From positions 1-64,000 of the IMG/VR virus record IMGVR_UViG_3300009085_000003: a stretch of 64,000 nucleotides of DNA. One strand, written 5' to 3'. The notes beneath the pieces were generated by a model. It did no database searches. It saw nothing but the letters and a program-made list of their open reading frames with translations, and had not been told where the DNA came from. Both the position numbers and the translations under genes were made by a program. This DNA is from a virus. This document shows, in pieces, positions 27,556 to 55,726 of this stretch (position 1 is its first letter; each line of letters opens with the position of its first letter).

Positions 27556-28263
27556 CTAGTGATACTTATTATCAATCGACTTGATGAACTCCACTATTGT
27601 GTCTGGTGTGTCATCCCGGTTGAACTCGACTCGCACAAAACGCGGGTCGTCCGGGGTCTCGCGTACCGCTTTCAGCTCCTCCATGCGTATCTCCAAGCTA
27701 TTCGCTAAATCCCAGATTGCCAATTGGTTGTGTTGCTGCGCCAGCTTGATGGCTTTTTCGTAGTTGTGCTCAACCACGGAGACGTCAAGAAAGAACTTGC
27801 GGCTCTCCTTATCGTACCACCCGCCGATATGGGTCTGGTTGTTCTTTTTCAGCAAATCTTGATGCTTGTCGATAAAGTTGGCGACATCGTTCGGATTCGG
27901 ACTCGTGGCATCGATGATAGTTTCGTAGTCTTTAAAGATTGACAGGGCATAGCCATCAGCTGGGCTACTGGCACTGCGTGGCTCAAACGTGAACCCGCCC
28001 TCAGTCAGCATCCGGTCGGTCAGGAACTTACCCATCTCAACTTTTTCCTCTGGAGCAAAATACCGCTCCTCTTGAACCTGTCGAGGCGCATCAGCACCCA
28101 TGGATTCCGACTCGGCTTTACCAGAACCATCACCCTCGCCACTACCACCAATTTTGCCCGGACGCCCAGCGTGCCCAAAATTACCGGAGCCCTTGCCTCC
28201 TTTGGTAGTGACAAAAACAGACAGGATGTTTTCAATCGCAGTGAAATCATTTGGCTCGGTCAT
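27556..28263 (-). CDS. tagged putative virion cargo protein, SAM-lyase-like domain
   Basis: KGG tag at aa 21-41, then GGW...FLDVS...AIKLAQQHNQLAIWD. Confidence 0.6.
   Translation of the reverse strand: MTEPNDFTAIENILSVFVTTKGGKGSGNFGHAGRPGKIGGSGEGDGSGKAESESMGADAPRQVQEERYFAPEEKVEMGKFLTDRMLTEGGFTFEPRSASSPADGYALSIFKDYETIIDATSPNPNDVANFIDKHQDLLKKNNQTHIGGWYDKESRKFFLDVSVVEHNYEKAIKLAQQHNQLAIWDLANSLEIRMEELKAVRETPDDPRFVRVEFNRDDTPDTIVEFIKSIDNKYH
28141..28203 (-). repeat. KGG-GH tag copy 1
   Basis: KGGKGSGNFGHAGRPGKIGGS. Confidence 0.95.
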
Positions 28264-38917: not shown

Positions 38918-38936
38918 CTGTCTTTGACTCCACAAT

Positions 38937-39292: not shown

Positions 39293-39684
39293 TTTTCACC
39301 TATAACTTTACTAAACTCACGTGCTTGGATACCGGGCAGGTTAATGTTCTTGTTTACAATGACGCCGCTGAATTTACCCTTGCGTGAGCGTATCTGTCCG
39401 GGAACGGTCTTGGCGACGAACGGCGGCAGCATCAAGGCGTGTCTTACCCGCGTGCCACGGTCGATATATTTGAAGATATCCTGCGTGGTGAAGATGTCAC
39501 GCACGTTTGGTTTCGTCGCTTCGATGACGAACAGGGGCTGGTTAATCCACGTTTGTGTGACCACCTTGTAATCGATACGCACATCCTCGGCAGCCTCGTC
39601 CAGTGCCCGACCGATACCCTTGAGGTACAAGCCGGGGTCTAGAAACGAGTTCGGTGGAACGTGAATTCGTGCCCCAAATCTCAT
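39223..39684 (-). CDS. HK97 gp10-like head-tail completion protein
   Basis: YIDRGTRVRH...LPGIQAREF; basic. Confidence 0.65.
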   Translation of the reverse strand: MRFGARIHVPPNSFLDPGLYLKGIGRALDEAAEDVRIDYKVVTQTWINQPLFVIEATKPNVRDIFTTQDIFKYIDRGTRVRHALMLPPFVAKTVPGQIRSRKGKFSGVIVNKNINLPGIQAREFSKVIGEKWTKRLPKMIQKSMATVAKQESR

Positions 39685-41333
39685 TCAGCCAATCTCCTTA
39701 ATCCATTCACCATATTGCGGTAAATATCACTACCAAGATTATACGCCTTATGCTGGGCTTTCGTTGTGACCACTTGCGTTTCCAGCAAGGTTCGTCCACC
39801 CATCTTGAGCAGCCATGACAGGCTCTTGGATGGGTCGATGTGATACGTCTTGGCAAACTTCGCAAACTGCGCCTGACCCAAGTCGAGGATTTTCTGTAAC
39901 GTGGTCGCGCGAGCATCCTGCCGCATATAGACTCGCAGGAACCCACCCTCCGGGGCGTCCTGCCACTCGAACGAATCGACATTGCCACCCAGCATCCCAA
40001 GCGTAAATTTGGGGGTCTTGGGGTTCAGGTCTTGTTTCGTAGCTTGAATCAGCGCAGCCTGAATCTCGGGCGACAGGTCGGATGCCTTGATGTTTTTTAT
40101 CATTAATGCCTTAGCTTGCTCAACGTCAATCTTACCGCTGCCTAGGTCAGCCAGAACATCGGTGTTGCCGGGCACAAGGCGGAACAGGGCGGGCAGCTTC
40201 TCCTTTTGGAACAGTGCCAGATTGTCAGCCACCGAAATGGCAGTGCCAATCGGGTTGCCCTCCCAGTTGATGTCGGTCGATGCGTGGTTCGCTATCTCGA
40301 TTGCAATCGCATCAGCCACACGGCTGCCAAACGCCTCCTCAATATCCGGGCGCACGTTCACGTTATAATTCTCAGCTCCCCAGCGGGGATGTCCCATATC
40401 AAGGAATACAGCAGCGGGGTCAGTCAGATACCCAGCGTCGTGATAAATGTTCGCTATATAGGCTTGTGCGATATCAGTCGGGGTGTCCGAGCCCGGCACC
40501 TGTTTGAGTATTTCAGTGGCGAACTCGATATTGCCTCGGATATGATTGATGCCATGGTCACCCAGCTGGCGCTTCATTGCCTCGTTGTCTTGGACTGCCA
40601 ATGCATCGGCAGCGTCCATGGCGATTTTGTGTCGCAGTTCTGGTGACGCGTTTGTGTTGACTAAAATATCGTCCAGTTCATACAGCGTCTCGGCAATCAC
40701 TTTAGCTGAGTCTTTATGGATGAACTTATCGGTCAGTTGTGTCATGCGCTCATCGACCGCAGCACGAACATCATTATCATTCAGCTTGGGTCGCTCCCCA
40801 AACTCAGCAAGGCGCTCTTTGATGATTTCTGGAATCCGTTTCCCGGCATCTGCCATACGGTCTTGGGCATCAGCTCCAGCCTCAGTCCACTTAGCGCGTC
40901 GCTCATCCATGTCCATCTTCGCCCATTCAGCTTGGTCGAACGCGATAGCGGGCTTGTTCTGTACCATGAAATTTGGTTCGTCGAGTTTTTTGGCACCATG
41001 CTCACTGGCAAGTTTATCAAACTTCTCCAGCATCACCTTGCGCATCGACGCAGCCCGCTCTTGCTGCTCAGGTGTTTTGGGCTGGGCGGATGGCTGCGCA
41101 GCGGGAGTAGCCTCGGTAGCGGTGACTGGGCTGGACTCACCCTTGGGTTGGCTGCCGCCACGCTTGCCGGGAATACCAGCATGACCGCGGTTGCCGGAGC
41201 CAGCCCCGCCCTTTTCGCGCGTCCCAGACATGCTGCGCTTCACGGCAGCATCAATCTGCTCCGGGGTTGCCGTGTAAACGTTCAGCCCCTCGCGTTGCAG
41301 TTCATCTTCGAGTCCATCTAATTTGTATACCAT
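39681..41333 (-). CDS. tagged putative virion cargo protein, HD phosphohydrolase
   Basis: KGG tag; DHGINH...YHDAGY...GHP...NH...VADNL. Confidence 0.8.
   Translation of the reverse strand: MVYKLDGLEDELQREGLNVYTATPEQIDAAVKRSMSGTREKGGAGSGNRGHAGIPGKRGGSQPKGESSPVTATEATPAAQPSAQPKTPEQQERAASMRKVMLEKFDKLASEHGAKKLDEPNFMVQNKPAIAFDQAEWAKMDMDERRAKWTEAGADAQDRMADAGKRIPEIIKERLAEFGERPKLNDNDVRAAVDERMTQLTDKFIHKDSAKVIAETLYELDDILVNTNASPELRHKIAMDAADALAVQDNEAMKRQLGDHGINHIRGNIEFATEILKQVPGSDTPTDIAQAYIANIYHDAGYLTDPAAVFLDMGHPRWGAENYNVNVRPDIEEAFGSRVADAIAIEIANHASTDINWEGNPIGTAISVADNLALFQKEKLPALFRLVPGNTDVLADLGSGKIDVEQAKALMIKNIKASDLSPEIQAALIQATKQDLNPKTPKFTLGMLGGNVDSFEWQDAPEGGFLRVYMRQDARATTLQKILDLGQAQFAKFAKTYHIDPSKSLSWLLKMGGRTLLETQVVTTKAQHKAYNLGSDIYRNMVNGLRRLAE
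41151..41213 (-). repeat. KGG-GH tag copy 2
   Basis: KGGAGSGNRGHAGIPGKRGGS. Confidence 0.95.
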
Positions 41334-41343
41334 GTGTCCACCT

Positions 41344-42525
41344 CTATGTCTCAGAACCTAATACATAATTATCAAACATCAAATCATCCAGACTTATACC
41401 ACAGTAGTTGTTCAGCAAATGATTGATTTTGTTGGTTTCAACGGGCGAGAACTGCCGGAGCAGATTTGTCCACCCGTTGGAGCCACTTTGCCACTTCAGT
41501 TTTTGGTCTGTGATATTACATGCCACCAGATGTATCAAGCCACGCACCTCGACAATAATTTCAGCGATTTTGTCAGGCGAATATCCCTTAGCTTGGAGCA
41601 TGGTGCGAAACAAAGCCACTGTATCGTCGAGTACCACGCGGTAGGTACTATCCGCTCCGCTGCCTATCCGCCCCGCTATCTTTCCAAAAATTTTGGCTAT
41701 CTCGCTGTACACCTCGCCGCCAGCGTCGTTACCGCTCTCGTTTGACACGTTCTTGGCTGCCTCGGGCAACGTCAGTATCTGGACGGCATACGCAACTTCG
41801 TCATTAATACCGGATATCGTTGAGATGCACTGGATAGACCGGGCACCGCTAACCACCGCCATGGCAATATCAGCAGATGACAAGGTGGACGCAGTTCCCA
41901 GCAGCTGGCGCTCCGCAAGCGCAGCGACGTGCGTGTATATTTGTTCGCCCTCCTCTTGACCATATTTGCGAATCAGGGTCTCTCGCGCTATATCAAAGTC
42001 GTACTCGTTATTCTTGGGATGACAGTGGAGTAGGGTCATGTCATCAAAACGCGCGATATCGTCGTCGGCGAACGCTATAGAGTGAGCACCGCCTCGCGCC
42101 TCGTGTATGATTTCCCCTTTCGGGTTCAGGACAAACGCATACTCCCTACCACCAGATATCTCACCCTGACGCATCGCCTCCTTAAGGAGCTCGTTGGTGA
42201 GCGCCCGGAACTCCAATGAATTCGTTGGCAGCTTCTCCGATTTTAGTGGGTCGGGAGCCCCGCCTGTCTCTGGTTTAGGATTATCAATCGGAGCTGCGTG
42301 CTCGCCTTTGGGGAGAGACCCACCTCGCTTACCGGGTCTACCGGCGTGACCACGGTTACCAGAACTGGCGCTGCCTTTTTCGGAAATCGGGGAAAGTTCC
42401 CGCTCTGACGCGAGTAAATCATCTAACGCCTGCTGGGTAATATCGGCGTCGTCATAACCGGCTTCTAGATATTTCAGCCAGTCGTCATTAAGCTCAGAGT
42501 TGTTAACAAAGTTCCTTGGTGTCAT
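41344..42525 (-). CDS. tagged putative virion cargo protein, JAB/MPN domain
   Basis: Tag; REYAFVL...LLHCHP...LSSADI. Confidence 0.7.
   Translation of the reverse strand: MTPRNFVNNSELNDDWLKYLEAGYDDADITQQALDDLLASERELSPISEKGSASSGNRGHAGRPGKRGGSLPKGEHAAPIDNPKPETGGAPDPLKSEKLPTNSLEFRALTNELLKEAMRQGEISGGREYAFVLNPKGEIIHEARGGAHSIAFADDDIARFDDMTLLHCHPKNNEYDFDIARETLIRKYGQEEGEQIYTHVAALAERQLLGTASTLSSADIAMAVVSGARSIQCISTISGINDEVAYAVQILTLPEAAKNVSNESGNDAGGEVYSEIAKIFGKIAGRIGSGADSTYRVVLDDTVALFRTMLQAKGYSPDKIAEIIVEVRGLIHLVACNITDQKLKWQSGSNGWTNLLRQFSPVETNKINHLLNNYCGISLDDLMFDNYVLGSET
42316..42378 (-). repeat. KGG-GH tag copy 3
   Basis: KGSASSGNRGHAGRPGKRGGS. Confidence 0.95.
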
Positions 42526-45371
42526 GTGACTCCTACTATAAACGGATTATCATTCATTATAACAAACTCCAATTCGTTCAGACACCCAAAGCCAGTTAGG
42601 GCATTACAGAAAATTCGGCTGATGGGCACTCTGGCAGAGAACACGTAAGCTGAATTGCCGCTACTGTGACCATCACCAAATGTATACGCAATACCAACCG
42701 AGGATGTCCATGCCTCCATCGCGTTGCCATGATATAGCGCCGTATCGTACTTGTCAATACCAGCCCTACCCGCCTCAAAATTGATGTCTCCGATAGCTCT
42801 GGGTACCTCCAAATCGATAAAGCCTCGATAAAGCACAAGGGTGTCAGTCGGTTTGTATCCCATTTTGGCGAACCACGCCTGTGTTTGGCGATATATCGCT
42901 CGCAGCAACGCGCGTGCCTCGGCATTGGTCAATAGCATCATATGTTCGGAGCGGATGTCCATCTTCTCATCCGATGTCGACAGCTCCCCCTTCGCCAAGG
43001 TGTCCGCAACGAATACCGTGAGACGAGCGAGGTTTCTCTGCTTCTCGTCAGGGAACACGTCCGCAAAATTGCCCTCCAGCATATCATTGAGCGGAGACGG
43101 GTACAGGGCGGTGATATCGACACCGGTCTCGGCTGCGTATTGCTCTGCCAACACCGTAACTTTTTCATGTAAGGCACGGGCAATACTCCGAACGGAGTCC
43201 TCGGTTCCGATACTCCCCTTGTCACCATCCGGCACGTTGTATAGAAACCCGCGTATGATGCTACTTTCGGTTTCGTGGATGTAGGCGTAGTATTTTGATG
43301 TATCGGTAACTCCGGCTGCCGCCAGAGCTTCGTAAGCTACGGCTTGTAGTTCGTCATAATACTTGGTCAGAAAATCGCTCTTGGGTTGTACAGCGGCGTA
43401 TTTCTGTTCTTGCCACTGCGACATATTAGCGCCAAACTCGTCCTTCATCGCCTTTTGCAGACCCAGCATCATGGCATTATTATCATTCGAGCTGTGCGCC
43501 CAGCACTTAATAGCCGTACTCACTAGGGTCGGACTAATCCCAGTCTCTTGACTTAGGGTACTAATCACGTTCTTTTTAGCTTCCACACGCGCCACATTTA
43601 GTAGAGCCTCAACTTGCCCTTTATAGGTACCAGCTACAATCTGCCTAGAGAGCTCATCACGGTATTTGGTCGCCATGTCCACCATGTAGGCTGACTCGGG
43701 ATGCTTGGTGTAATGTTGTAGAAATTCTGGCGTGAGGTATTTGTCCAACATGAGCATCTCACGCTCGAGGGCGATTCGGCTCCTGTCGTCCCGGTCGCCT
43801 TTCTGAGTTCTATCAAACGGGGTAATATCCGCAAAATACTCCCCACTGCTTTGGCTTCCGCCCACCGCTACCGGTCGTGACGCCCCCTTTGGGGCGCTGC
43901 CGCCACGTTTGCCAAGGATGCCAACATGCCCATGGTGCCCAGAGCCAGTGCCACCTTTGAATGCAGCAACCTTGCCTTGGAGAATCCCCATGATGAATGC
44001 AAACATATCCGGGTCTTGGCGTGCCAATCGCCATGGGCTGACCGCGAATATCTCAAAAGCGCAGGACAGCAACTCGGTGCTCCCGTTCTGGTAGGAGGTA
44101 GTCATATACTCGAACAAGGGCGGCTTGTTCCGAGCTTCCAGCCGGTCTCGGTATTCGTTCAGTAACGCCCGGTCGTCGTCGTATAGCAGATATTCAATAG
44201 CGTGACCATACTCATGCGCGACCGTTGCCTTGAGCTCATCGTCCATGGTATCCACATCGAGGTCAGTCTCTCGGTCGGTGTATGGATAATTTTCCCGTGT
44301 TGGTAAGAGCTCAGAGTACCCAGCCAGAGCCCGCAGCTCGGGAACCACCTCATAAGGAATGTTCATTTGCGTATTGGTATCATCGTAGTTAGCGCCACTA
44401 TTAAACATACTGTACTTTAAGTTTACGCCAATCATGGGCTGGGTTTCGTCCACCACATCATAATTGACCAGCGAGTCGACTTCTGTAATCGCATCATATA
44501 TTTTCTGGTCGATAGCATCTCGAATTTCCGGCGTCAGTTGCTTGAGCACCCTATCAGGATAATTATGCATCACGTCCACGGTCTCATACTTGTTCAGATA
44601 CTGGGTGGTGTCAACACCAAACATATCGACGAACTGGCGTTGCATCTTGTGTTGCAGGGCTTGAGACACCTCTCGAGCCTTGGTATAGCGCTCCATGGCT
44701 GTCGATAGTTCATCGACCGCGTTCTGCATCACATCAGCTGCATGTTCGCCAAGGTACTTTTTTGCCTTGGCGTAAGAGTCTATAGCGACCACGCGTATCG
44801 GTTTCGATGGAATCTTGGCTGTGATATCAAATCCCGCATTACGCCACGCAGCGTTAGGCATATTATCAAGGTGTATATTTGGGTAGAACGCACCCTCAGC
44901 TCGAAACGCGATTGTCCAGTCCTCCGACACTTCATACTCGCCCAGCTCCAGCATATCCAGTACCTCGCCGTTACCAGCCCGCCACGCTGACATCACCGCG
45001 TCGAGCTGCTTGTGAGTCTCGGCATACGCTGCCGTGTACTGAGTCAGGTCTTTATCAATCGCTTTCATGTATGCGTCTAGATAGGTCTTGCCAATCGCCT
45101 TGGTCTGACGCAGTTTTGCCGTGAGTCCCTTTTGGTCGTAGTACCGATGCCGCACAGACGGGATATCGTACGACGGGATATCACGCTTTCCCTGCCCCCG
45201 CTCCCCCTTGGGTAACGACCCGCCACGTATCCCCGGACGACCCGCATGTCCCCAGTTTCCGGAGCTGGCACCACCTTTTACAGTGGCGCCAGTTCCCCAT
45301 ACAGCTGGGTCGATGATATCGATGTCAATCGATAACGGGATTCCGGGAACCGCGACGTTATTGTTTTTCAT
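42522..45371 (-). CDS. two-module tagged protein: zincin metallopeptidase + R-S-E-type ADP-ribosyltransferase
   Basis: AHEYGH...TELLS; LYRGF...AWTSS...ELEFVI. Confidence 0.8.
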   Translation of the reverse strand: MKNNNVAVPGIPLSIDIDIIDPAVWGTGATVKGGASSGNWGHAGRPGIRGGSLPKGERGQGKRDIPSYDIPSVRHRYYDQKGLTAKLRQTKAIGKTYLDAYMKAIDKDLTQYTAAYAETHKQLDAVMSAWRAGNGEVLDMLELGEYEVSEDWTIAFRAEGAFYPNIHLDNMPNAAWRNAGFDITAKIPSKPIRVVAIDSYAKAKKYLGEHAADVMQNAVDELSTAMERYTKAREVSQALQHKMQRQFVDMFGVDTTQYLNKYETVDVMHNYPDRVLKQLTPEIRDAIDQKIYDAITEVDSLVNYDVVDETQPMIGVNLKYSMFNSGANYDDTNTQMNIPYEVVPELRALAGYSELLPTRENYPYTDRETDLDVDTMDDELKATVAHEYGHAIEYLLYDDDRALLNEYRDRLEARNKPPLFEYMTTSYQNGSTELLSCAFEIFAVSPWRLARQDPDMFAFIMGILQGKVAAFKGGTGSGHHGHVGILGKRGGSAPKGASRPVAVGGSQSSGEYFADITPFDRTQKGDRDDRSRIALEREMLMLDKYLTPEFLQHYTKHPESAYMVDMATKYRDELSRQIVAGTYKGQVEALLNVARVEAKKNVISTLSQETGISPTLVSTAIKCWAHSSNDNNAMMLGLQKAMKDEFGANMSQWQEQKYAAVQPKSDFLTKYYDELQAVAYEALAAAGVTDTSKYYAYIHETESSIIRGFLYNVPDGDKGSIGTEDSVRSIARALHEKVTVLAEQYAAETGVDITALYPSPLNDMLEGNFADVFPDEKQRNLARLTVFVADTLAKGELSTSDEKMDIRSEHMMLLTNAEARALLRAIYRQTQAWFAKMGYKPTDTLVLYRGFIDLEVPRAIGDINFEAGRAGIDKYDTALYHGNAMEAWTSSVGIAYTFGDGHSSGNSAYVFSARVPISRIFCNALTGFGCLNELEFVIMNDNPFIVGVT
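43896..43958 (-). repeat. KGG-GH tag copy 4
   Basis: KGGTGSGHHGHVGILGKRGGS. Confidence 0.95.
45216..45278 (-). repeat. KGG-GH tag copy 5
   Basis: KGGASSGNWGHAGRPGIRGGS. Confidence 0.95.
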
Positions 45372-45921
45372 ATGCAGCCAGATAATCTACAACCTCAAGT
45401 TGTTTGTGGGCAGTCATCATTTTGTCCACTACCAGTTTAACATCTTTCCAGACATCTTTACCGTAATCATGGAACAGAATAATTCCACCCTTTTTGACCA
45501 GTGGAACCCAGTCTGTGATATCGCGGGTGATTTCGTGCTCCAGATGACCATCGTCAACCAGCAGCAGGTCGATGGGTTTATTATCCGCCCAGTGCTTGAC
45601 CCGTGCCTCGTGCGCGTCCGCAAGAATCTGGACGGGATACGCCGGGAACCCATGCTCCAAAAATGCGTTCTGTTCATTCACCAAGCCGTGCCCTGTAGCC
45701 ATTAAGGTATTATCAATCGTGTACAGGGTCGGCAGCAGGTCTGGGCGTACATCAGCCACCGCCATGGCAGTGGTTCCCACGCCCGCGCCAATATTGACCA
45801 CCGTGGCATTCTCCGGGGCAAGCTGGGCATACTTCGCCAGTAGACCCACCTCGTTAACCGTCAGGTAGCCGAACGACCGAGCCAGATGCTCCGCACGTGT
45901 TGCTTTCAGTAACTCGCTCAT
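45358..45921 (-). CDS. class I SAM-dependent methyltransferase (Methyltransf_24-like)
   Basis: VVNIGAGVGTT, LLVDDGH, VKKGGIILFHDY. Confidence 0.85.
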   Translation of the reverse strand: MSELLKATRAEHLARSFGYLTVNEVGLLAKYAQLAPENATVVNIGAGVGTTAMAVADVRPDLLPTLYTIDNTLMATGHGLVNEQNAFLEHGFPAYPVQILADAHEARVKHWADNKPIDLLLVDDGHLEHEITRDITDWVPLVKKGGIILFHDYGKDVWKDVKLVVDKMMTAHKQLEVVDYLAAYEKQ

Positions 45922-48900
45922 AATCCTAGTAACCTCCTAATAGCAACCTCTAGGTCGCTACTGTTTAAATTATAGTCGAAATCAAATATATCGTTAGCAG
46001 CAATGATTTCGACATTCTCACCACCAAAGATACGGAACTCACCCATGGAGCTCATCTGGTAACCCTTGGCTTTGCCCAGCTTCCCCATTTTTGGTTTCAG
46101 AACAAGTGTCTTAAACTGTTTCGGGTCAAGTTTGGCGAGCGCTTTCCAGTTGGTGCCAAAGAATACCGGGTTGCTCATGCCGCCCGCACCTTCACGCGCA
46201 TATAGGTAGGCGTGTGACCACAGATACCACAGAGCCTCGCGGTACGCCTCCTCGGTCATCAGGGTTCCATCCCACTTTTTGACCTCCTCGCCACGTTCAT
46301 AAGCCATAAGTCTGTCCAGACTCTTTTCGCTATCGAACTCCCGGAATCGGTCGCTCCAATCTTCCCGGATACCCTCACTGCCGTTCTGGGCACCCTCAAA
46401 CATCTGGGTAGCAGTCAACATACCATTTGCGACTAACCACGCCTCCTGTAGAGACTGCTCGACTTCTTTGGCAGTCTTAAGGTCATTGGTCAGGGAGATG
46501 GTCTTATCATCACCGCCCGCAAGACCGACTTCGCTATCGTGCCCATGCATCTCGTAGCGGGAGCGGAGCTGGTCACCGATGACAGCTGCGGCATCGGTCG
46601 TGACGTGATATAGCTCATCCGGCAATTCCATCCATTTGCCTTGGTTACTGACATAAAACGCTGTCAGCGCCTCAACATCGGACGGGGTCAAGCGAGCAGC
46701 GGTGACCGCATGATTGACATCGAACTCGAACTTTTCACGCAGCTCCCCAGCCACTCCGCCATATTCTATGATATCGTAGTACCCTTTGTATTCTTTGCTA
46801 TCCTCGCCATACTTGGCTTTAAGTTGCTCCTCGTACCCCTGCAAAATATAGTCTGTCTCCGAGCGACTAAACTCGGTCATGTCAGGAGCGCCTGCCAGTA
46901 ACTCTCGGGCTAATTTTCTACCGTAACGACCACGCTCCGCACTGGCATCGCTTCCATCTTGTATCAAGAGCGACTTGTCAGTCATCCGTGTAGATAAATC
47001 CTCTGCGTTTTCAGGCAGCCCAAGCTGTTCGCGCACGCGACGTATGCGATTATCAAACTCGGCTTGATGGTGCTCCAATACTTTGGTTACCTGAGCTGTA
47101 GTAACATAATTGCAGTTCGTAAACACTTCCATCCCGAGGTCTACAGTTGCTGGGTCATCACTGTCCCGCAAAGCACGCCAGTGGTCATATGTCAGACCAA
47201 GCGTGCTAAGCGCAATATCAAAATCGTCAGCACCCAGTCCAACAGTGCCATTATTATCCGTGGCTTCCAGTTTGTTTTTGAGGAGCAGGTATGGTCTGGA
47301 TATTGTCATCTGCGGAGTCTCCAGTATCTCCGCACTCACATCCGGGTCTCCATACCCACGCCTGACGCTACGAGAACTGAAATAGAATTTGTCGGCTAGG
47401 TCAATCATGACATCTGGGTTAGGAATGATGCCATTGTTAGCGATGATGGCTTTCGCCTCTTGCACCAGAGCTTGCCGCTGGGCACGAGCTTGTTCGACCT
47501 CAGCATCCTCGATACCGTATGACACCACCGGTCGCGCGGCTCCCTTGGGCGCTGAACCGCCCCGGCGTCCCAAGACGCCCACGTGTCCACGGTGACCAGA
47601 ACCAGCCCCGCCTTTCAGCTTCGCCTCTTTGTTCACGCCAACGTAGTCCCACTCTTGGAGCGGGTGGGTACGCCAGCCACCATCGTCGCTGATGTATATA
47701 GCAATGTCCGACGGATTCAACTGTCGTTCAAATAAGGCGCTTAGAATGTCAGGAAAGTGTTTATCCAGCTTTTTCAATAACCGGTCGATATCATCATCAC
47801 CGTATCGATGCAGAGATACAATTGGCTTCCCTTTCACATACCCAAACAGCCCACGGAAACTTATGTTATCCTGATTTAATTTGTCATTACCACCATAACG
47901 ACCTGTCTCTCGCATGAGGATATCGTCATGTATCTCGTCTTTTTTCCCGGCGAACGCAAGCCCATCCTCGGTAACCAAGAATGGTCGAACGTCAGCCATG
48001 CCCTCTGTTTTATTGGTTCGTATCATGGCGTAGCCGGGTATCTCGTCCTCAGCCCGGAGTCGAGAGGCAACATCGATATCAGTAATGCCCATCGTCACGA
48101 GCCCACCGCGTCCTGAGCCACCCACCTTACCGGGACGTCCACGATGACCAAAATTACCAGAGCCCTCTCCGCCCTTGAGTACCACATTTCCGTGAATAAT
48201 CCCCAAAATGAATGAGAACAGGTACGGGTCTTGCCGCGCCAGTTTCCATGGGGCGGTAGCGAAAATCTCAAAAGCACAGGACAGGATTTCGGTCTCCCCG
48301 CTCGAGTATTCCCTGTTCATGTAGTCAAAGAACATATGAGACGTGTTCTTGTTCGTTCGGTAGTCCCTCAGGGCTTGGCGGGTCTTGGCTGGCAACCGTG
48401 CCTCTACGTGATGACCCAACTCATGCCACAACTCCGCTCGGGCAGCCTCTTGCATGGCGTCCACATCCAGTTCGGTATGGCGCTGTACATACGGATAATT
48501 GTTCGGGTCGTTAGCAAGGAACTCCCCGCTATCCCATGTGTACAAAGTCGCCTCGCCGCTTATCTGCTGTAAATCCGCAGTGTACGCGCCCCGATTCGGG
48601 TAGGTAACAAAGAGCACTTCGTTATCGACAGCTTTCGGGTCGTAGACACTTTTATCAATCATCTGGTTGGCACGCCACAGCTCCTGCCGGATAAACTCCT
48701 CGGCATCAGGGGCGTACCGTATATCGCCAATATTCCAACCGATAGGACGCGGCGCCAAAGCGATAGACGTCCTGAATTTCTCCGCCTTGTCTCCGGCACT
48801 CAGCACACTGGTATAACAGTCCATGACCATCTGGCGCTGCATGTCGTTGACCTCACCCTTGCGCTTGATAACCTCTTGAACAAATTCATTGTGTCGATTT

Positions 48901-51900
48901 AGATACGTCTCAAAGTGCTCCGCCGCCTGCGGATACTCTTTCTGAATGTCGCGCAAGCTCATCTCTCGCTCGAGCGTATTGTTGAACGGGGACGGCGAGA
49001 TTCGTCGCTCAGTAATTGTAAAAACTCTATCATCGATGCCTATCGGTCGAATGCGACTTGTCCCATAAAGATGGGACTCGATTCCAGCAACCGCGGTACT
49101 GGTCTGTTCGTTGAACATCGCCTCGCGCGTATCCGGGGATGACAGGGTAGACCTATCGTTTTCCATCCACACCATCTGGTTACGAACCCAGACGAGATAG
49201 TCATCGCGCAACTTCTCATACTGTTCTACCTGCGGTTTGACCCGGTTCATGTACTCGAGCACGGCAGAGGCGCCCGCCCGCATCAACGACTTAACGTCAT
49301 GTTCGTATACAACTGGATGACCGCTCACATCTTTTTCCGGTGGGAATTTCAGGAACGGATTATCAAGATTAATAGCGGGGGTGGAACGCTCACCTTTAGG
49401 TAACGAACCTCCACGCTTGCCCGGTCTGCCAGCGTGACCGATATTGCCGGAGCCCGTACCACCCTTAGTAGTAACATTCGGGTCATAGCCAAATGTAAAC
49501 GAGTCAAGCTCCGTGAGCCAATCAAAGTGCCGAAAGTATGGCTTGTTGGCAACGATGACCACGCGCAATGGCTTGCCCGTTAAATCACAATACTTTTTCA
49601 GGGCGCCCATGAATCGAGACCCTAGGTTGTTAAGGTTGTCTGGTTTTTTAAAGATGGTTCCCAAATATAGGTATGAGCCATCGTCCTGTATTCCAACCGA
49701 CAACTGGGTATTATCATTATCGGTGAAGTACAGCGACTCGACCGGATTGCCGTAGATGTCGTTCCACCGCTCGTCACCATTACCATAGCGCATCGTAACA
49801 TCCCCGCCCATTTCGCGCTCAAAGAATATCTTCACCGGGTTGTCTGGCGTGTTTAATAGTTGCCGACCAGTGATACTGCGACTCCACAGCTCGCGCCGGG
49901 GCATATCTGTGCCGTCAGCAACTTCACGTAGCTTATTAACAGCATCGTTATAACCCGCTTCGGAGCCGCCCTCCCCAGACCCACCCACCTGTCCGGGGCG
50001 TCCCCGGTGACCAAAGTTACCAGAACCCTGTCCGCCTTTCAGCACCGTAGTTCCCTGAATGATGCTGAGGATAAAGCCGAACATCTCTGGGTCTTGTTGG
50101 GCAAGACGCCATGGGGCAGTAGAGAATATCTCGAACGCGCAGGACAGGAGCTCGGTGGCACCAGTGCGGTACCGTGTTTGCATGTAGTCGAACATGAAAG
50201 GATTCTTACCATCGGCTACATCCACGCGAAAGAGATAGAAATTATCAATAGCATGACGGTATGGTACGGTTAGAGTGTGTTCCACATGATGACCAAACTC
50301 GTGCCAGATTTCCAGCCGCAGGTATTCTTGCAGTGTGTCGACATCCACATCGTAGTCTCGCGGTATGAATGGATAAATGCCACCTATGCCAGCACCGGGG
50401 AATTCTGGGGGTTCAGCCGCATAGGCGCTCTCGCGCTGGTCGTATGTCACCAGCTTGCGGTCTAAGGTGATGGTCGGTATATCCAACTCCCGGTTGTCCG
50501 CAGGGTTGGCATACGAACCGGTCATAAGGGAGGTGTCAATATAGAGCTTGTCACCATACAAGCTGCGGTTGCCCTCATGCAGAATGTTGACATTCACTAC
50601 GCCTGCCGCATCGTCTACGACGCTACGAATATAATCAATGGCGTCCGGTGAAATAGATAGGGGCTTACCGGTGATGTCTACTCCTCCCGTATTCATGTCC
50701 AGCGCGACCTCCCATGGTCTTGGGTTGGACGCCTTAAGAGATTTAATGAACTGGTTCGCTAACTCGGTCTGGACTTTGTTGGCTGCCTCGCGCTTTTCAA
50801 TATAGCCGTTCGCAAAGGCATTGTAATCGTTGAACCACTTATCCAGTCCGCCAGCAGTGAGGGCTTCTGGATATTTTTCCTTGAGGTCGTTGTAGCTGAA
50901 AACCTGCTGGTATTTGTGACCGGATTCGTGGGTATTTGGGTCATCAGCCGACGGTACCCATGGCTGGATAAGCAGGAACGGCTCATCCGGGCTCAGGGGA
51001 CGCACCTCCATGCGCGAGTCGTAGGTATTATCAAAGCGCTGCTGCCCGATACGAATCGACGGGTTCCGCACATCGACATGGGCAAGACCGTAATCATCAG
51101 GGGATAGGTGCCGAAACGTGTCATGGAGCACATTGCTAGAATCGGCTGACGGCAGACTTTGCAGGAACTCATGTGTTATCGCCTTAAAGTCAGCCTGTGC
51201 CTCAGTGACGAACGTCTCCCGCAGCTTTTTGTACTCATCCAGCTGGGGCTCGATGGATTTCAGGTATACAGCTGCCGCATCCTTGTTCGCGTCGATGAGT
51301 GCCTGAACATGGCTTGGGTATTGCGGTGCCGGGAATGTTTTGTCGCCCACGCGCAGGACACCACGCGGCTGCTTCTTGGGCTTGTCTACTGGAACCCCAC
51401 GAACGCCCTTGGGCAAGCTGCCACCGCGTTTTCCGGGTCGTCCTGCATGACCAACGTTCCCAGAGCCTGTGCCGCCCTTGGTGGTAGTCTCTTTCAGGGA
51501 GATGTTCCCATCGGAATCGATAAACACGTGCTTGGCAGACAAAAACTCGCTCAGGTCATATTCGAGCGATACACTGGAGTACCCATGACCGAGATGCTCA
51601 GAGTACGTCTGCCAGCGCACAGTGTCGTTGTCCGCCAGCTCCATATCCCAGACGCCAGCATCGTACATGCGTTGCAGCTGGCGGAGGATTTTGGAGTTGA
51701 CGTTCTGGGTGGTGATATATAAAGACTTGCCACGGAAATTACCAACCAACAGGCGGAAGTTCACGAACGGTATCGCGCTGTTCTCGTCCATGACCAACAT
51801 GCCATACGTCTCCTGCATGGCGTGGCGGAACATGCCCACGGTCTCAGAGAGCTTCACCGGCATCGTTGTCATGGGCTGATTCTCGAGCTGGTGTTTCAGG

Positions 51901-54041
51901 TAGATAGCGTTGTACTTATTAACTATCCGTTCGAGTTCTTTTTCAATCTCGTGGTCATCATCAAACACACCCTCATCGACCTCGCGGGTCAGCTTGTGCA
52001 TCTCTTTGTCCAAGTCGACATATTCCTGTAGCCACGCAATCGCTGGGTCATCGTTAGACTCCAGTATTTTCTTGGCGCTCCTAGCAACACCGATGATGGG
52101 GCGCAACGCATCGAACACAAAGACGGCTTTTTCACCAACCCGTCCGGGGTCAGCTTCCATCTCCTTGACGATATCGGGGAATAATCCCGGATTTTCGTAC
52201 ACAATTCCACCCACCAGCTGCTCGTGACTAAAATGCCCTTCGCCACGAACGCCAATCACGCCAATCCCCTCGATATAGGTGGCGGCTGCCGTGGTGAAGT
52301 CATCAACATCGTCTCCCTCGAGCTCAGCCTTAATCGCTTCGTTCACGCTGTCGAATGGACGGTAGCCACTCGGGAGCTTGACAGTGTTCCAGTCTATTGT
52401 CGGGGGACTATCGATGCCGTAGGTAATTGACTCGCCCGCAGGGGCACGGGGGACAGGAGCAGCGCCTTTCGGGGCAGAACCACCGCGCTTTCCCGGCACA
52501 CCTACGTGACCATGGTGCCCACTGCCAGCACCGCCCTTGGTGGTTACCTCGGGCATCAGATAATACAGCTTGTAAAAATACTTATAGCCATCCGGTGATG
52601 GGGATTCCTTAAATTCATCGAGAACCCACTGAGCGTCATGATTGAGACGCAACGTAAACATGCCATCTATCCACGAAGGCGGGATAGCCTGCTCCATGCG
52701 ATAGCACCCTTGAGTCTCAAAGTCAACGTCAGCTTGCGCGTCTGTAAAGATGTCAGATAATTTTTCAATCGGAACCCGGATACGCACCCACACAGGCTGG
52801 GTTTTCGCAGCAAACTCCTCCGGTGGAAACAAGTCAGTTGGTACGTTGTGTTGTACATAGCTGGCTAGGTCGGTCATCGTTTCTATGTCATCGACAAAAT
52901 AGGTCGATGGCGGTCTGCCATAATGGACACGACCGGGCAGAATGCCGTACTGCTTGAGACTGTCCGCCAAACCAGCTGGAGTCCCATGGTAGAGGTCAAC
53001 GTATCCGATACCCTTTGCGATAAGCTCCTGCTCCAGAGCGTCCAGTTTCGCAGCGATATCTGGGTCGTAGTTCGTAAAGTCTCCCTGCGCATGATACGGT
53101 GTCGCATACGGGTCTTTACTCGGGTCTGTTTTCATCGGTTCTAGGTCACGCTCCCAGCCATGGAGACCGGTGTAAGCCGGGTCTGTGCGACGCGGGTTGT
53201 GCATGTCAATGACTTCCGACGCCGGAGCGACCCTGCCACCGAACCGACTCCCGCCACGCTTTCCGGGAATACCAGCATGACCCGCCTCGCGCGTGAATCC
53301 ACTGCCCTTCCCGCCTTTGAGTGAAATCGGGGAAACTTCCCTCCCCGCTATGCGATGCAACGGCAGGTGAACTTGCTTCGTCCGGTACGGTAAGATGAGT
53401 TCCCAGTTCCGTATCTGGAGCGGGTTCCATGCACGATGACGCTCGACGCAGGTCTGGCAGTGCTCAGCGACCCCGAGCTCCCAGTATGCATCAGCGTTAC
53501 CGTCCTCGATATCACCGATGACCTCGATACGCCACCGGCATTTGCAGTTTTTCAAACATTGGCTGGTACCATCCCCCGGATAGGCTGGCAGGGGCATGTC
53601 ATCCACGCCCAGCTTGGCAGAGGTGTTGGCACGCCAGTATTGCTCTACCGCAGTGCGGTTGTACTGACGAGCACGCCCGAACCAGCGGCTGTCGAAATTG
53701 GTATCATCGAATTTGTTCCCGAGTTGGTTGGCTGCGATTACCAATGCAAAGCCAGACAAGAACGCCAGCTGCTGGGCAATCGCTTGTGTCAGGTAGTCGC
53801 TTGCTTTTGGGGGAATGACCTCAGAGCCAGCGCCGACCATGTAGCCGGTGGTGGCTCCCAAACCGATGAGCTCACCCATCAGCTGCTCCCAAGCCTCGAC
53901 GGTTATCTCACCGTTAAATAGCTCGTAGAGCAGGGCGTCGGTCTGTTCATCCATGCCCATAATAACGGGAATCAGCTCGGGGGGCAGACCGTCGTAGCGT
54001 TCCCACAGCTCGGGCTCACCAAGCGGGGTGTAGTCTGGCAT
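45918..54041 (-). CDS. MuF-like minor head protein fused to seven tag-delimited effector modules (polyvalent protein)
   Basis: Directly after portal; PGDG..QCLKNCKC...HCQTC; 7 tags; two HExGH, two LYH(G/V)T, one GNAT-like module. Confidence 0.85.
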   Translation of the reverse strand: MPDYTPLGEPELWERYDGLPPELIPVIMGMDEQTDALLYELFNGEITVEAWEQLMGELIGLGATTGYMVGAGSEVIPPKASDYLTQAIAQQLAFLSGFALVIAANQLGNKFDDTNFDSRWFGRARQYNRTAVEQYWRANTSAKLGVDDMPLPAYPGDGTSQCLKNCKCRWRIEVIGDIEDGNADAYWELGVAEHCQTCVERHRAWNPLQIRNWELILPYRTKQVHLPLHRIAGREVSPISLKGGKGSGFTREAGHAGIPGKRGGSRFGGRVAPASEVIDMHNPRRTDPAYTGLHGWERDLEPMKTDPSKDPYATPYHAQGDFTNYDPDIAAKLDALEQELIAKGIGYVDLYHGTPAGLADSLKQYGILPGRVHYGRPPSTYFVDDIETMTDLASYVQHNVPTDLFPPEEFAAKTQPVWVRIRVPIEKLSDIFTDAQADVDFETQGCYRMEQAIPPSWIDGMFTLRLNHDAQWVLDEFKESPSPDGYKYFYKLYYLMPEVTTKGGAGSGHHGHVGVPGKRGGSAPKGAAPVPRAPAGESITYGIDSPPTIDWNTVKLPSGYRPFDSVNEAIKAELEGDDVDDFTTAAATYIEGIGVIGVRGEGHFSHEQLVGGIVYENPGLFPDIVKEMEADPGRVGEKAVFVFDALRPIIGVARSAKKILESNDDPAIAWLQEYVDLDKEMHKLTREVDEGVFDDDHEIEKELERIVNKYNAIYLKHQLENQPMTTMPVKLSETVGMFRHAMQETYGMLVMDENSAIPFVNFRLLVGNFRGKSLYITTQNVNSKILRQLQRMYDAGVWDMELADNDTVRWQTYSEHLGHGYSSVSLEYDLSEFLSAKHVFIDSDGNISLKETTTKGGTGSGNVGHAGRPGKRGGSLPKGVRGVPVDKPKKQPRGVLRVGDKTFPAPQYPSHVQALIDANKDAAAVYLKSIEPQLDEYKKLRETFVTEAQADFKAITHEFLQSLPSADSSNVLHDTFRHLSPDDYGLAHVDVRNPSIRIGQQRFDNTYDSRMEVRPLSPDEPFLLIQPWVPSADDPNTHESGHKYQQVFSYNDLKEKYPEALTAGGLDKWFNDYNAFANGYIEKREAANKVQTELANQFIKSLKASNPRPWEVALDMNTGGVDITGKPLSISPDAIDYIRSVVDDAAGVVNVNILHEGNRSLYGDKLYIDTSLMTGSYANPADNRELDIPTITLDRKLVTYDQRESAYAAEPPEFPGAGIGGIYPFIPRDYDVDVDTLQEYLRLEIWHEFGHHVEHTLTVPYRHAIDNFYLFRVDVADGKNPFMFDYMQTRYRTGATELLSCAFEIFSTAPWRLAQQDPEMFGFILSIIQGTTVLKGGQGSGNFGHRGRPGQVGGSGEGGSEAGYNDAVNKLREVADGTDMPRRELWSRSITGRQLLNTPDNPVKIFFEREMGGDVTMRYGNGDERWNDIYGNPVESLYFTDNDNTQLSVGIQDDGSYLYLGTIFKKPDNLNNLGSRFMGALKKYCDLTGKPLRVVIVANKPYFRHFDWLTELDSFTFGYDPNVTTKGGTGSGNIGHAGRPGKRGGSLPKGERSTPAINLDNPFLKFPPEKDVSGHPVVYEHDVKSLMRAGASAVLEYMNRVKPQVEQYEKLRDDYLVWVRNQMVWMENDRSTLSSPDTREAMFNEQTSTAVAGIESHLYGTSRIRPIGIDDRVFTITERRISPSPFNNTLEREMSLRDIQKEYPQAAEHFETYLNRHNEFVQEVIKRKGEVNDMQRQMVMDCYTSVLSAGDKAEKFRTSIALAPRPIGWNIGDIRYAPDAEEFIRQELWRANQMIDKSVYDPKAVDNEVLFVTYPNRGAYTADLQQISGEATLYTWDSGEFLANDPNNYPYVQRHTELDVDAMQEAARAELWHELGHHVEARLPAKTRQALRDYRTNKNTSHMFFDYMNREYSSGETEILSCAFEIFATAPWKLARQDPYLFSFILGIIHGNVVLKGGEGSGNFGHRGRPGKVGGSGRGGLVTMGITDIDVASRLRAEDEIPGYAMIRTNKTEGMADVRPFLVTEDGLAFAGKKDEIHDDILMRETGRYGGNDKLNQDNISFRGLFGYVKGKPIVSLHRYGDDDIDRLLKKLDKHFPDILSALFERQLNPSDIAIYISDDGGWRTHPLQEWDYVGVNKEAKLKGGAGSGHRGHVGVLGRRGGSAPKGAARPVVSYGIEDAEVEQARAQRQALVQEAKAIIANNGIIPNPDVMIDLADKFYFSSRSVRRGYGDPDVSAEILETPQMTISRPYLLLKNKLEATDNNGTVGLGADDFDIALSTLGLTYDHWRALRDSDDPATVDLGMEVFTNCNYVTTAQVTKVLEHHQAEFDNRIRRVREQLGLPENAEDLSTRMTDKSLLIQDGSDASAERGRYGRKLARELLAGAPDMTEFSRSETDYILQGYEEQLKAKYGEDSKEYKGYYDIIEYGGVAGELREKFEFDVNHAVTAARLTPSDVEALTAFYVSNQGKWMELPDELYHVTTDAAAVIGDQLRSRYEMHGHDSEVGLAGGDDKTISLTNDLKTAKEVEQSLQEAWLVANGMLTATQMFEGAQNGSEGIREDWSDRFREFDSEKSLDRLMAYERGEEVKKWDGTLMTEEAYREALWYLWSHAYLYAREGAGGMSNPVFFGTNWKALAKLDPKQFKTLVLKPKMGKLGKAKGYQMSSMGEFRIFGGENVEIIAANDIFDFDYNLNSSDLEVAIRRLLGL
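47553..47615 (-). repeat. KGG-GH tag copy 6
   Basis: KGGAGSGHRGHVGVLGRRGGS. Confidence 0.95.
48114..48176 (-). repeat. KGG-GH tag copy 7
   Basis: KGGEGSGNFGHRGRPGKVGGS. Confidence 0.95.
49404..49466 (-). repeat. KGG-GH tag copy 8
   Basis: KGGTGSGNIGHAGRPGKRGGS. Confidence 0.95.
49977..50039 (-). repeat. KGG-GH tag copy 9
   Basis: KGGQGSGNFGHRGRPGQVGGS. Confidence 0.95.
51417..51479 (-). repeat. KGG-GH tag copy 10
   Basis: KGGTGSGNVGHAGRPGKRGGS. Confidence 0.95.
52476..52538 (-). repeat. KGG-GH tag copy 11
   Basis: KGGAGSGHHGHVGVPGKRGGS. Confidence 0.95.
53247..53318 (-). repeat. KGG-GH tag copy 12 (3-aa insertion)
   Basis: KGGKGSGFTREAGHAGIPGKRGGS. Confidence 0.9.
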
Positions 54042-55726
54042 TAGCGCCCCCTGCGTGCGAATTTGGTTACTGAGCTGTACAGCTTCCGTGCGGCTCCCAT
54101 AGATTTAGCCAGAATGCTCTCAGCCCGTTTTTGTTCCTTGGGGGTCACAACCGGGATAGGCTTGTCACGCTTGGCTCCTAGACTGTTCACCTTGGGCTTG
54201 GGGGCTGGCTTGGTACGCACCGCCTTGGTTGCTTTAGGCTTAGCAGTTGCCACCAGCTTACCCAGCATCTGTTGCCGGAGCATCTTATTGAAATCAGCCG
54301 GGTTGGGCTTAACAGCTGGCGCAGCAGTGTTGGTCGCTACGGTAGGCGTTCCCGGCGTGACCTCTGGACTGGCATTATCATCCGGGCTCATGCTGACCTC
54401 ACCGGGTGCTCCAACCGGAGCGCCTGTCTGGACGCCGGGAGCCTTTGAATCAGCGAAATCCTTGGGCAACTCGTCTTTTTCAATCATCATCGTGCGTTCC
54501 TCGTCGGGTGTGGTCAGACCAGCTGACAGACGCACCTGCGCTGACTGCGCACGCTTGGTGGAGATATCCTCAGATTGCTGGATGTCACGATAGTCTTTTT
54601 CAACAAATGCAAACTCGGTATCCATGGGCATGACGTACTCATTCATGGCGTGTGTGAAAGCCTCGCGCCATGCGACCAAACCCTTGCCACGCGCCTTGTC
54701 CGCCAGAACCTGTGACTGGGCGCCGGTACCGATAGTGCCGGAGCTGAGCGGCTGGAGCTCTTGGGGGTCAAGACCGAGCACGTCTGCATAGGTCAGGAGG
54801 GCAATGTCAAACTCCTCTTTGCGCTGGAATCGGTCAGGCAGTTCGGCAAGTGGGATTTTTACCAGATTTGGCTGCATCTCATCCGGGACACCAAGCACCA
54901 CAGCGCCCATGTAGGACATGACGCCCTTGGCAGTCTCACCGGATTTGGTAGCCAGAACAGCCTCGCGCAACTGGGTGTCCAACACGCCGTTCACGATGTA
55001 GATAGCAAGCGGGTGCATACCGGAAATCTTCTCCCGGAGGTACCACTCAATCGCTGACAATTTGTAGATAGCTGGGAAAGCACGGCTGGCGGCACACAGT
55101 CCGACGCCGTTATAAATCTCGGACGGGTCTGGCATCTCCGAGAACATCATCACTTGGTGGTCACGCATCTCATGGTACGCGCCCCGCCTGTCCTGAAAGA
55201 CAACCGGGACGTCCGGGTCGCCGGTACGAATGCAGCGCAACGAGTCCAAGTGCCGGAGACCGATAATCTTGCTGCCCTCAGCTGGCGAAGCTCGGACGAT
55301 TTCGATGAAACTTCCGTTATCCGTGGTCAAATAATCGCGCAACTGTTTTGACAGGAACCCGACCCACCCGACCCGGCGTCCATCCGCACCACGCAGCAGC
55401 TCTTGGGTATCCTGTACACGCTGCGGCACTGAGCCCTTGATTTCCCATGACAGCGACACGATGCGCGTGATGGCAATACCGATGGCGGCTGACCACATGG
55501 CTTCTTTGAATAGAGAGCTGCGCAAGATAGCATCGCGCCCCCGCGTCCAATACGCCGGGGGCTGTGGGGTCATGGCGCTCGAGTCCTCGCTACGATGCCA
55601 CGGAACTACAATTTGTAGGACGCCACCATTCAGAACCTGCGCGACGTCATCTTTGGTGACAGACTTTTGTAAGAGCTTCTTGATGTCAGTTGCTCCGCTA
55701 TCCGCCTTTTTGTTTTTTTGAACCAT
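54041..55726 (-). CDS. portal protein
   Basis: LRDYLTTDNGSFIEIVR...LRHLDSLR...GLTTPDEER; upstream of MuF-like gene. Confidence 0.85.
   Translation of the reverse strand: MVQKNKKADSGATDIKKLLQKSVTKDDVAQVLNGGVLQIVVPWHRSEDSSAMTPQPPAYWTRGRDAILRSSLFKEAMWSAAIGIAITRIVSLSWEIKGSVPQRVQDTQELLRGADGRRVGWVGFLSKQLRDYLTTDNGSFIEIVRASPAEGSKIIGLRHLDSLRCIRTGDPDVPVVFQDRRGAYHEMRDHQVMMFSEMPDPSEIYNGVGLCAASRAFPAIYKLSAIEWYLREKISGMHPLAIYIVNGVLDTQLREAVLATKSGETAKGVMSYMGAVVLGVPDEMQPNLVKIPLAELPDRFQRKEEFDIALLTYADVLGLDPQELQPLSSGTIGTGAQSQVLADKARGKGLVAWREAFTHAMNEYVMPMDTEFAFVEKDYRDIQQSEDISTKRAQSAQVRLSAGLTTPDEERTMMIEKDELPKDFADSKAPGVQTGAPVGAPGEVSMSPDDNASPEVTPGTPTVATNTAAPAVKPNPADFNKMLRQQMLGKLVATAKPKATKAVRTKPAPKPKVNSLGAKRDKPIPVVTPKEQKRAESILAKSMGAARKLYSSVTKFARRGR

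Follow-up and report, generated by a model that had tools for sequence, protein, structure and literature searches.

What does a short glycine-rich peptide do when it recurs seven times within a single phage protein of 2707 amino acids (aa)? This question is raised by P0001, the product of an open reading frame (ORF) that lies on the minus strand at positions 45918-54041 of the IMG/VR virus record IMGVR_UViG_3300009085_000003, and that remains open over 2707 codons. The window, i.e., the whole stretch of DNA that was analyzed, comprises the first 64 kb (64,000 nucleotides, nt) of a 79,569-bp single contig from an uncultured phage, and this contig evidently corresponds to the phage genome. A regular-expression scan of P0001 detected seven copies of the motif KGGxGSGxxGHxGxxGxxGGS, hereafter referred to as tags, which split the 2707 residues into eight modules (M1 to M8). 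By analogy with known phage proteins, we consider it fairly probable that P0001 is a phage-type polyvalent protein that travels as cargo in the capsid, and that the tags act at the protein level as an address and processing label, and not as a DNA recombination device.

Modular architecture of P0001

An initial annotation, made from the letters of this DNA, had already divided the polyprotein into eight modules with the tags as boundaries. The motif scan arrived at identical limits, each interval of that annotation corresponding to a tag together with the module behind it. The features of the locus are as follows:

45918..54041, minus strand: P0001 polyprotein (M1 and the seven modules behind tags), overlapping the end of the portal gene with its start and the beginning of g187 with its stop
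53319..54041, minus strand: M1, head-assembly domain, aa 1-241 (homologue family, AF2 model, position after the portal)
53247..53318, minus strand: tag 1, degenerate, with an FTR insert (3 aa), aa 242-265 (motif scan)
52539..53246, minus strand: M2, weakly Tpt1/ADP-ribosyltransferase (ART)-like, aa 266-501 (PDB profile search; LYHGT motif)
52476..52538, minus strand: tag 2, subtype B, aa 502-522 (motif scan)
51480..52475, minus strand: M3, no label, aa 523-854 (tail resembling pre-tag segments elsewhere)
51417..51479, minus strand: tag 3, subtype A, aa 855-875 (motif scan)
50040..51416, minus strand: M4, putative zincin, aa 876-1334 (HEFGHHVEH at aa 1247-1255)
49977..50039, minus strand: tag 4, subtype C, aa 1335-1355 (motif scan)
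49467..49976, minus strand: M5, no label, aa 1356-1525 (GNAT label without support)
49404..49466, minus strand: tag 5, subtype A, aa 1526-1546 (motif scan)
48177..49403, minus strand: M6, putative zincin, aa 1547-1955 (HELGHHVEA at aa 1873-1881)
48114..48176, minus strand: tag 6, subtype C, aa 1956-1976 (motif scan)
47616..48113, minus strand: M7, no label, aa 1977-2142 (without matches)
47553..47615, minus strand: tag 7, subtype B, aa 2143-2163 (motif scan)
45921..47552, minus strand: M8, helical N-terminal half plus predicted ART-fold C-terminal core (45921-46655), aa 2164-2707 (alignment, model, VIA fold search)

In agreement with the same annotation, no small immunity-like genes lie between the modules: the whole array is one ORF, and the genes that follow it abut or overlap by 4 nt. 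Moreover, no modelled domain spans a tag, the models of M1 and M8 both stopping short of the tags. Searches of all eight modules against Pfam (E up to 10) and NCBIfam returned no match, ART-PolyVal and Phage_Mu_F included, and for that reason each module label was tested by other means. With PHROGs, queried with the whole of P0001 and with its modules, the sole match was a PHROG of unknown function that covers the tag itself, and word-indexed homologue searches with the whole of P0001 retrieved tag-sharing proteins only.

The tag peptide

In the whole genome there are exactly 12 tags and no other type of tag, and every one of them is in frame within a long ORF of the minus strand: seven are found in P0001, two in g949, and one each in g393, g550 and g235. 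At the peptide level these tags share a mean identity of 75.6%, and chance cannot account for 12 copies of a 21-residue motif that are 76% identical on average. The initial annotation had observed that genes downstream of P0001 repeat its grammar as stand-alone units, and this holds for g949, g393, g550 and g235, each of which is built of leader, tag and module, the leaders being non-conserved and about 20-49 aa long.

Regarding its sequence, the tag is Gly-rich, with five Gly-X-Y triplets, and basic, and it forms a header of 21-27 residues with the consensus KGGxGSGxxGHxGxPGKxGGS(xPKG); VP, VL, IP or IL stands at the Arg-Pro position in five of the 12 copies. Three subtypes can be distinguished, namely A (GHAGRPGKRGGSLPKG), B (GHVGxxGKRGGSAPKGA), which heads M3, M8 and the ART of g949, and C (NFGHRGRPGxVGGSG), and all three are common to non-homologous modules. 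The three paralogous putative zincins of the genome (M4, M6 and the first module of g949) all have subtype A headers, consistent with tags moving together with the modules behind them; the tags that come after these zincins belong to subtypes C, C and B.

Outside this genome, the peptide is kept in unrelated phages with different codons. The exact 12-mer GSGNFGHAGRPG occurs in 108 IMG/VR stretches, as compared with 3 contigs from 185,579 bacterial and archaeal species genomes, and this rarity in cellular genomes implies that the carriers are mostly not prophages. In the 108 stretches, the first tag lies at most 60 residues from the first Met in 87 of 157 ORFs, and the last tag lies always at least 72 residues from the stop (158 ORFs); since the last tag is never near the stop, the tag always serves as a header. 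A full-text literature search for the tag strings found no paper describing the tag.

A second junction tag, KH[LM]PGxH[DN]QxxHG(N/R)xG (HLPG-type), occupies the same positions as the GSG-type tag described above, sometimes within the same polyprotein (P0029, P0013 and P0003, and loci L032 and L038). In addition, a third tag, GD[LV]PGHxFxGNQ[WY]T, flanks an M8-like domain in L057 and L049.

Variation in the tag-coding DNA

According to the initial annotation, tag-coding DNA provides microhomology for the gain, loss and shuffling of modules, similarly to a polymorphic-toxin array. If tags existed mainly for that reason, their synonymous sites should have been homogenised. The reference for this comparison was the same peptides back-translated with the codon usage of the gene block itself. 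The DNA of the 12 tags is 63.8% identical, against 61.5 +/- 0.7% obtained from random synonymous codons, and the longest exact match shared by a pair of tags averages 7.4 nt, where the simulations gave 6.9 nt. Identical residues use the same codon in 35.4% of cases, with 30.7% expected, and in 37 other multi-tag IMG/VR loci the corresponding values are 38.9% and 34.3%.

Some observations do speak for a recombination device: module sets vary among relatives with junctions at the tags, the three tag subtypes are common to non-homologous modules, and a few tag pairs share 20-nt runs here and runs of up to 32 nt in other phages. Nevertheless, the identity, the runs and the codon sharing all remain near the random expectation, both here and in the 37 loci, so that the similarity of the tag DNA hardly exceeds what the peptide sequence imposes; the small codon excess, together with the 20-32-nt runs, fits occasional recent duplication. 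With the synonymous positions of the tags close to random, it is the peptide that is under selection, and unrelated phages keep it by means of different codons. Moreover, single-module genes, which need no junction, carry the tag at their N-terminus, and it is interchangeable with a different peptide tag. A tag that heads stand-alone genes and is swapped for an unrelated one in relatives behaves as a protein-level signal. Altogether, the microhomology explanation appears unlikely to us, and recombination at the tags would be at most a by-product.

Relatives of the locus

A profile of M1 retrieved 46 IMG/VR loci, 39 of which keep the gene order portal, M1, g153, protease and capsid protein; the capsid-like g485 of the present phage is 35-56% identical to the capsid proteins of the closest relatives. 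Tagged cargo genes or fusions were found in 10 of these 39 syntenic loci, and most have a stand-alone M1 that is followed at once by g153, with no tagged cargo. In the present phage, M1 and g153 are separated by about 14 kb, occupied by the seven fused modules and then by g187, g949, g393 and g550. Other relatives place cargo between g153 and the protease: four consecutive genes of L032 (10908-18261) each carry an N-terminal KHLPGxH[DN]QxxHG tag, as do two in L038 (10960-15230).

A comparison between three of these loci is particularly direct. The protease-scaffold proteins of L021 and L025 (886 and 930 aa) carry an extra module behind an HLPG-type tag at aa 614 and 623, respectively, and in L023 the same arrangement is split into a 614-aa protease and a gene of 395 aa with the tag at aa 22. 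This is fusion or fission exactly before a tag. A further fusion in the same lineage links a portal to an effector, as the portal homologue at L045:7701-9779 has a C-terminal 2H phosphoesterase (2_5_RNA_ligase2, E 4e-10).

The order of modules within polyproteins is equally variable. In the M1-led P0029 (1748 aa), HLPG-type tags connect about six modules, and one of these modules is 49% identical to the module of g550; it carries an HLPG-type header there, and here it is a free gene with a GSG-type header. P0013 is arranged as M1, HLPG tag, module, GSG tag and M8-like domain, and P0015 as tag, ART, M1, tag, module, tag, module, tag and M8-like domain, while P0044 combines M1 and seven GSG tags with repeated small modules and a terminal HExxH module. 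The view of the initial annotation that the modules are swappable is thus borne out: content and order vary among relatives, the junctions fall at tags, and an invariant order was not seen.

The head-assembly domain M1

A search of 1.84 billion representative proteins gave 1061 homologues of M1, the majority being stand-alone proteins of about 185-190 aa. Some are found at the C-terminus of proteins of ~650 aa whose N-terminal part is homologous to g561 (portal-M1 fusions), and in some M1 homologues a tag comes next, with an ADPrib_exo_Tox ART or a zincin after it. Two homologues are interrupted by inteins with Intein_splicing and HINT matches (P0041, aa ~175-620; P0140, aa ~195-610), which fits M1 being an essential and conserved head gene. 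The AF2 model, with a predicted local distance difference test (pLDDT) score of 88.9, consists of a four-helix bundle and a Cys-rich zinc-ribbon (C162, C166, C168, C195 and C198), and its confidence collapses at aa 221-241, just before tag 1.

The label proposed earlier for this module, MuF-like, stands in part. Like the MuF proteins (SPP1 gp7/Mu gpF, PF04233), M1 is encoded directly after the portal and occurs fused to portals, ARTs and toxin-like domains. It differs in that neither M1 nor any of 94 relatives (95 members in all) matched a Pfam family at E up to 0.01, PF04233 Phage_Mu_F included. When the model, a four-helix bundle with a zinc-ribbon, was compared with BFVD, about 12 of the entries at ranks 3-50 were named as head morphogenesis, minor capsid or MuF-like proteins, with weak values (E 0.06-0.9, template modelling (TM) score 0.2-0.3). 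M1 is a real head-protein family that behaves like MuF and is not a demonstrable member of it.

Predicted activities of modules M2 to M8

Two modules had been labelled ART-like, and this label is better sustained for M8, by its fold, than for M2. A three-sequence profile of M2 searched against PDB gave RNA 2'-phosphotransferases for 10 of the top 20 matches, with a best E of 0.018, over the region of the LYHGT motif (aa 350-354), which is common to P0003, P0004, P0027 and P0033. This lends weak support to M2 being Tpt1/ART-like. An alignment of the M2 family against the M8 family with hhalign gave nothing.

In the case of M8, a word-indexed homologue search with the module alone found nothing, and homologues were found in 17 giant proteins of IMG/VR. 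In an alignment of 15 sequences, taken from P0013, P0015 and the IMG/VR homologues, residues H316, S353, T355, R453 and E505 (M8 numbering) are invariant. The structural model has a confident C-terminal core, and the first 14 residues behind tag 7 have a pLDDT of 37. With the VIA fold aligner, which scans about 48,000 PDB chains, more than 30 of the top 50 matches were ART folds, aligned over model residues 300-530 with moderate Z values of 4.3-7.5. The best superposition was obtained with Tpt1 (9ld3; Z 7.5, root-mean-square deviation of 2.5 over 88 residues), and pertussis S1, Scabin, DarT, diphtheria toxin, PARPs, Arr and RES toxins were also among the matches. Foldseek against PDB returned nothing at E ≤ 0.001 for the same model, the best value being 0.11 and the hits not ART folds. 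As the list, despite moderate Z values, is consistent and spans the domain, the modelled M8 core is assigned to the ADP-ribosyltransferase fold. Both modules, M2 weakly, point to the Tpt1/KptA branch of the superfamily, the M8 core superposing on Tpt1 and the M2 profile picking Tpt1 chains. They differ from known members in having no sequence-model match, and M8 differs also by a helical insert of ~110 residues and a helical N-terminal half of 300 aa.

The zincin label of M4 and M6 relies on a conserved HExxHxxE and finds no database model or structure to match it. M4, M6 and the first module of g949 are paralogues that share this motif and a conserved C-terminal block, and HExxH is present in 12 further modules from M1-led and tag-sharing proteins elsewhere, eight of them with the full HExxHxxE. 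The putative zincins gave no match in Pfam, NCBIfam or PDB, and a profile searched against PDB and IMG/VR gave nothing. Modules with the zincin motif number 15 among the fetched M1-led and tag-sharing proteins, and 34 of 190 tagged ORFs in IMG/VR contain one. A zincin as an obligatory partner of the tag was considered and rejected, the motif being enriched and not universal in partial loci.

No Pfam or NCBIfam match supports any label for M3, M5 or M7. The earlier GNAT-like label of M5 is thus without support, and this module had no relatives in the fetched sets either. The last 80 aa of M3 resemble pre-tag segments of P0029, P0027 and P0006.

Neighbouring genes

The genes around P0001 that bear on its interpretation are listed below:

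54041..55726, minus strand: g561, portal-like, immediately upstream of P0001 (homology)
45358..45921, minus strand: g187, untagged S-adenosylmethionine (SAM) methyltransferase (Methyltransf_24) in the cargo block; its start overlaps the stop of P0001
42522..45371, minus strand: g949, leader, tag at aa 32-52, putative zincin (HEYGH), tag at aa 472-492, predicted DRAT-like R-S-E ART (homology)
41344..42525, minus strand: g393, 49-aa leader, tag at aa 50-70, module without label (motif scan)
39681..41333, minus strand: g550, 40-aa leader, tag at aa 41-61, module 49% identical to an internal module of P0029 (comparison)
39223-39684, minus strand: g153, 153 aa, no database match; directly after M1 in 38 related loci
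36872..38935, minus strand: g687, putative prohead protease at aa ~300-445 with an acidic scaffold-like tail (synteny, conserved His/Ser)
27556..28263, minus strand: g235, 20-aa leader, tag at aa 21-41, module; 11 kb from the cluster, among other late genes

The portal-like g561 shares 30-49% identity with the gene that precedes M1 in 36 loci and with the N-terminal parts of the portal-M1 fusions; its homologue in L003 matches PF04860 with an E of 3.6e-4, below the cut-off. A search of IMG/VR with the single portal protein found nothing, its relatives being recovered later by the M1 profile. At the other end of the block, the profile of the g687 protease domain received no label from PDB or PHROGs. 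This protein has a 290-aa N-terminal extension that is missing in relatives, whose matches begin at aa 272-304, and its aa 9-48 are similar to part of L048 and to a PHROG of unknown function. Where protease and scaffold join, g687 reads TAFAVKQGDD and presents a hydrophobic-hydrophobic-Lys pattern like the pre-tag VTTK, VVLK and AAFK, which is only a lead. The conserved g153 is probably another head-assembly component.

Concerning the cargo genes, the C-terminal module of g949 is predicted to be an R-S-E ART, through transitive homology to DRAT-matching proteins. The string SPIS is common to the tail of M1 before tag 1 (REVSPISL-KGG, window 53250-53330) and to the end of the g393 leader (RELSPISE-KGS, 42370-42400), and judging from this likeness the g393 leader-tag unit may have derived from an M1-tag junction. 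Homologues of g235 aa 83-195 were detected in ORFs of L058 (E 2.6e-12) and L052 (E 8e-8), loci fetched for their M8-like domains, which makes the g235 module part of the same cargo repertoire. In L005, L006, L010 and L011, homologues of g187 are encoded in the variable slot that separates g153 from the protease, indicating that untagged genes also travel there.

Proposed function of the tags

Iyer, Burroughs, Anand, de Souza and Aravind (2017; PMC5512222) have described phage polyvalent proteins in which MuF, ART and zincin domains are combined and for which packaging, processing and injection are presumed. They contain 2-15 distinct effector or enzyme domains, and processing by their own zincin domains has been proposed (PMC5512222). 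P0001 is likewise a multi-domain polypeptide in a phage late/head-gene setting tied to a head domain and to the portal, with many effector-type domains, a head-domain anchor and no immunity genes. It differs in that no repeated header or linker peptide is described there (the words 'linker' and 'glycine' do not occur), in that none of its eight modules matches Pfam, and in that the header is also found on stand-alone genes.

Bearing these similarities in mind, the tags are probably loading and/or cleavage signals. M1 is a small head-assembly protein to which seven modules have been appended here, with four stand-alone tagged genes encoded in the same late block. It could carry the polyprotein into the procapsid, where free tagged modules might be recruited through their tags. 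A protease would then cut at or near the tags, the candidates being the zincin modules of the phage and the head-maturation protease g687, and the freed ARTs, zincins and other enzymes would leave with the DNA and act on the host. As each module has its own header, modules could be gained, lost, fused or split without losing the ability to be loaded, which would explain the combinatorial architectures of the relatives.

Short peptides in front of capsid cargo have precedents. The signals of T4 and SPN3US are short cut-site motifs specific to one lineage. Similarly to the tag, the capsid-targeting sequences of T4 internal proteins and those of the ejection proteins of giant phages such as SPN3US, which are cut by the prohead protease (PMC10052503), are short N-terminal peptides that precede cargo encoded with head genes. 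Such cargo enters the procapsid, undergoes trimming by the head protease and is then injected. The tag studied here differs from them, being a 21-residue Gly/His peptide that is found across unrelated phages, is repeated inside polyproteins and has no defined cut site.

Several results weigh against reading the tags as an address and processing label. In other phages the tag is preceded by L, K, D or N, and Lys at the P1 position was set aside for this reason; so was a Glu cleavage site ahead of every tag, since a Glu lies within 6 residues upstream in only about half of the 12. Since the pre-tag residue varies and a nearby Glu occurs only in about half, no scissile bond can be named. Many tag-bearing stretches are without a zincin, though these stretches are partial, and g687 is recognised as a protease from its position and its conserved His/Ser only. 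Furthermore, tblastn of P0001 and of the tag segment against 50,697 cultured-phage records gave no match, where the low-complexity filter may hide the tag, and the slightly raised codon sharing would allow for some exchange between tags at the DNA level.

As improbable as the microhomology device, in our estimate, is an explanation in which the tags are flexible Gly-rich spacers and nothing else, and the intact protein threads the portal and the tail channel like beads on a string. The tags are indeed Gly-rich and lie in low-confidence regions that flank modelled domains, and the lack of a nameable cut site would be expected from a simple spacer. However, spacers do not show an invariant GSG..GH.G..G..GGS with a fixed His and mostly Arg-Pro across distant phages, nor is there a reason for them to be kept behind non-conserved leaders at the N-termini of stand-alone genes.

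A MuF-type polymorphic toxin serving competition between bacteria, and not host take-over, seems very doubtful. It would account for a head-protein domain at the N-terminus followed by ART-type toxin-like domains, and some relatives consist of M1 and a single ADPrib_exo_Tox domain. On the other hand, there is neither an immunity gene nor a small coding-strand ORF between or after the modules, M1 does not match PF04233, and the exact tag variant is almost confined to viral stretches (108, against 3 contigs from the 185,579 species genomes). P0001 also has eight modules and not one C-terminal toxin, and it departs from the MuF polymorphic toxins (Jamet et al. 2017, PMC5576092) both in its seven appended modules, where these have one, and in having no immunity gene. 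The polymorphic-toxin analogy of the initial annotation is for these reasons weaker than the one with polyvalent proteins. Least probable of all is a basic DNA-binding peptide (GRPGKRGG) tying the modules to the packaged genome for ejection: the tags are basic and their G-R-P core flanked by K/R is reminiscent of the AT-hook core, but Arg-Pro is replaced in five of the 12 tags and the alternative tag KHLPGxHDQxxHG has no such core.

Biological significance

Polyvalent proteins have been recognised through sequence analysis. A header in front of every module, fused or free, offers a concrete handle on how their domains enter the capsid and become separate active enzymes, as it can be mutated, transplanted to a reporter and used as a search key for the injected arsenal of uncultured phages. 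The phage described here is an extreme example, with 12 tagged modules in about 14 kb, none of them recognised by current domain libraries, inserted into a head operon that is mostly free of tagged cargo in the relatives found. What is new in this work is the codon test, the synteny series (cargo-free relatives, and fusion or fission at tags) and the ART fold of M8 suggested by its model.

More tentatively, and with less than even confidence, we propose that the GSG tag and KHLPGxHDQxxHG form a portable capsid-cargo code, in which a conserved head component reads the tags, loads the cargo and cuts it free; besides the proteases mentioned above, g153 is a further candidate for such a reader. 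If this were true, phages could acquire or discard injected enzymes cassette by cassette, and the tag could serve to load foreign proteins into capsids.

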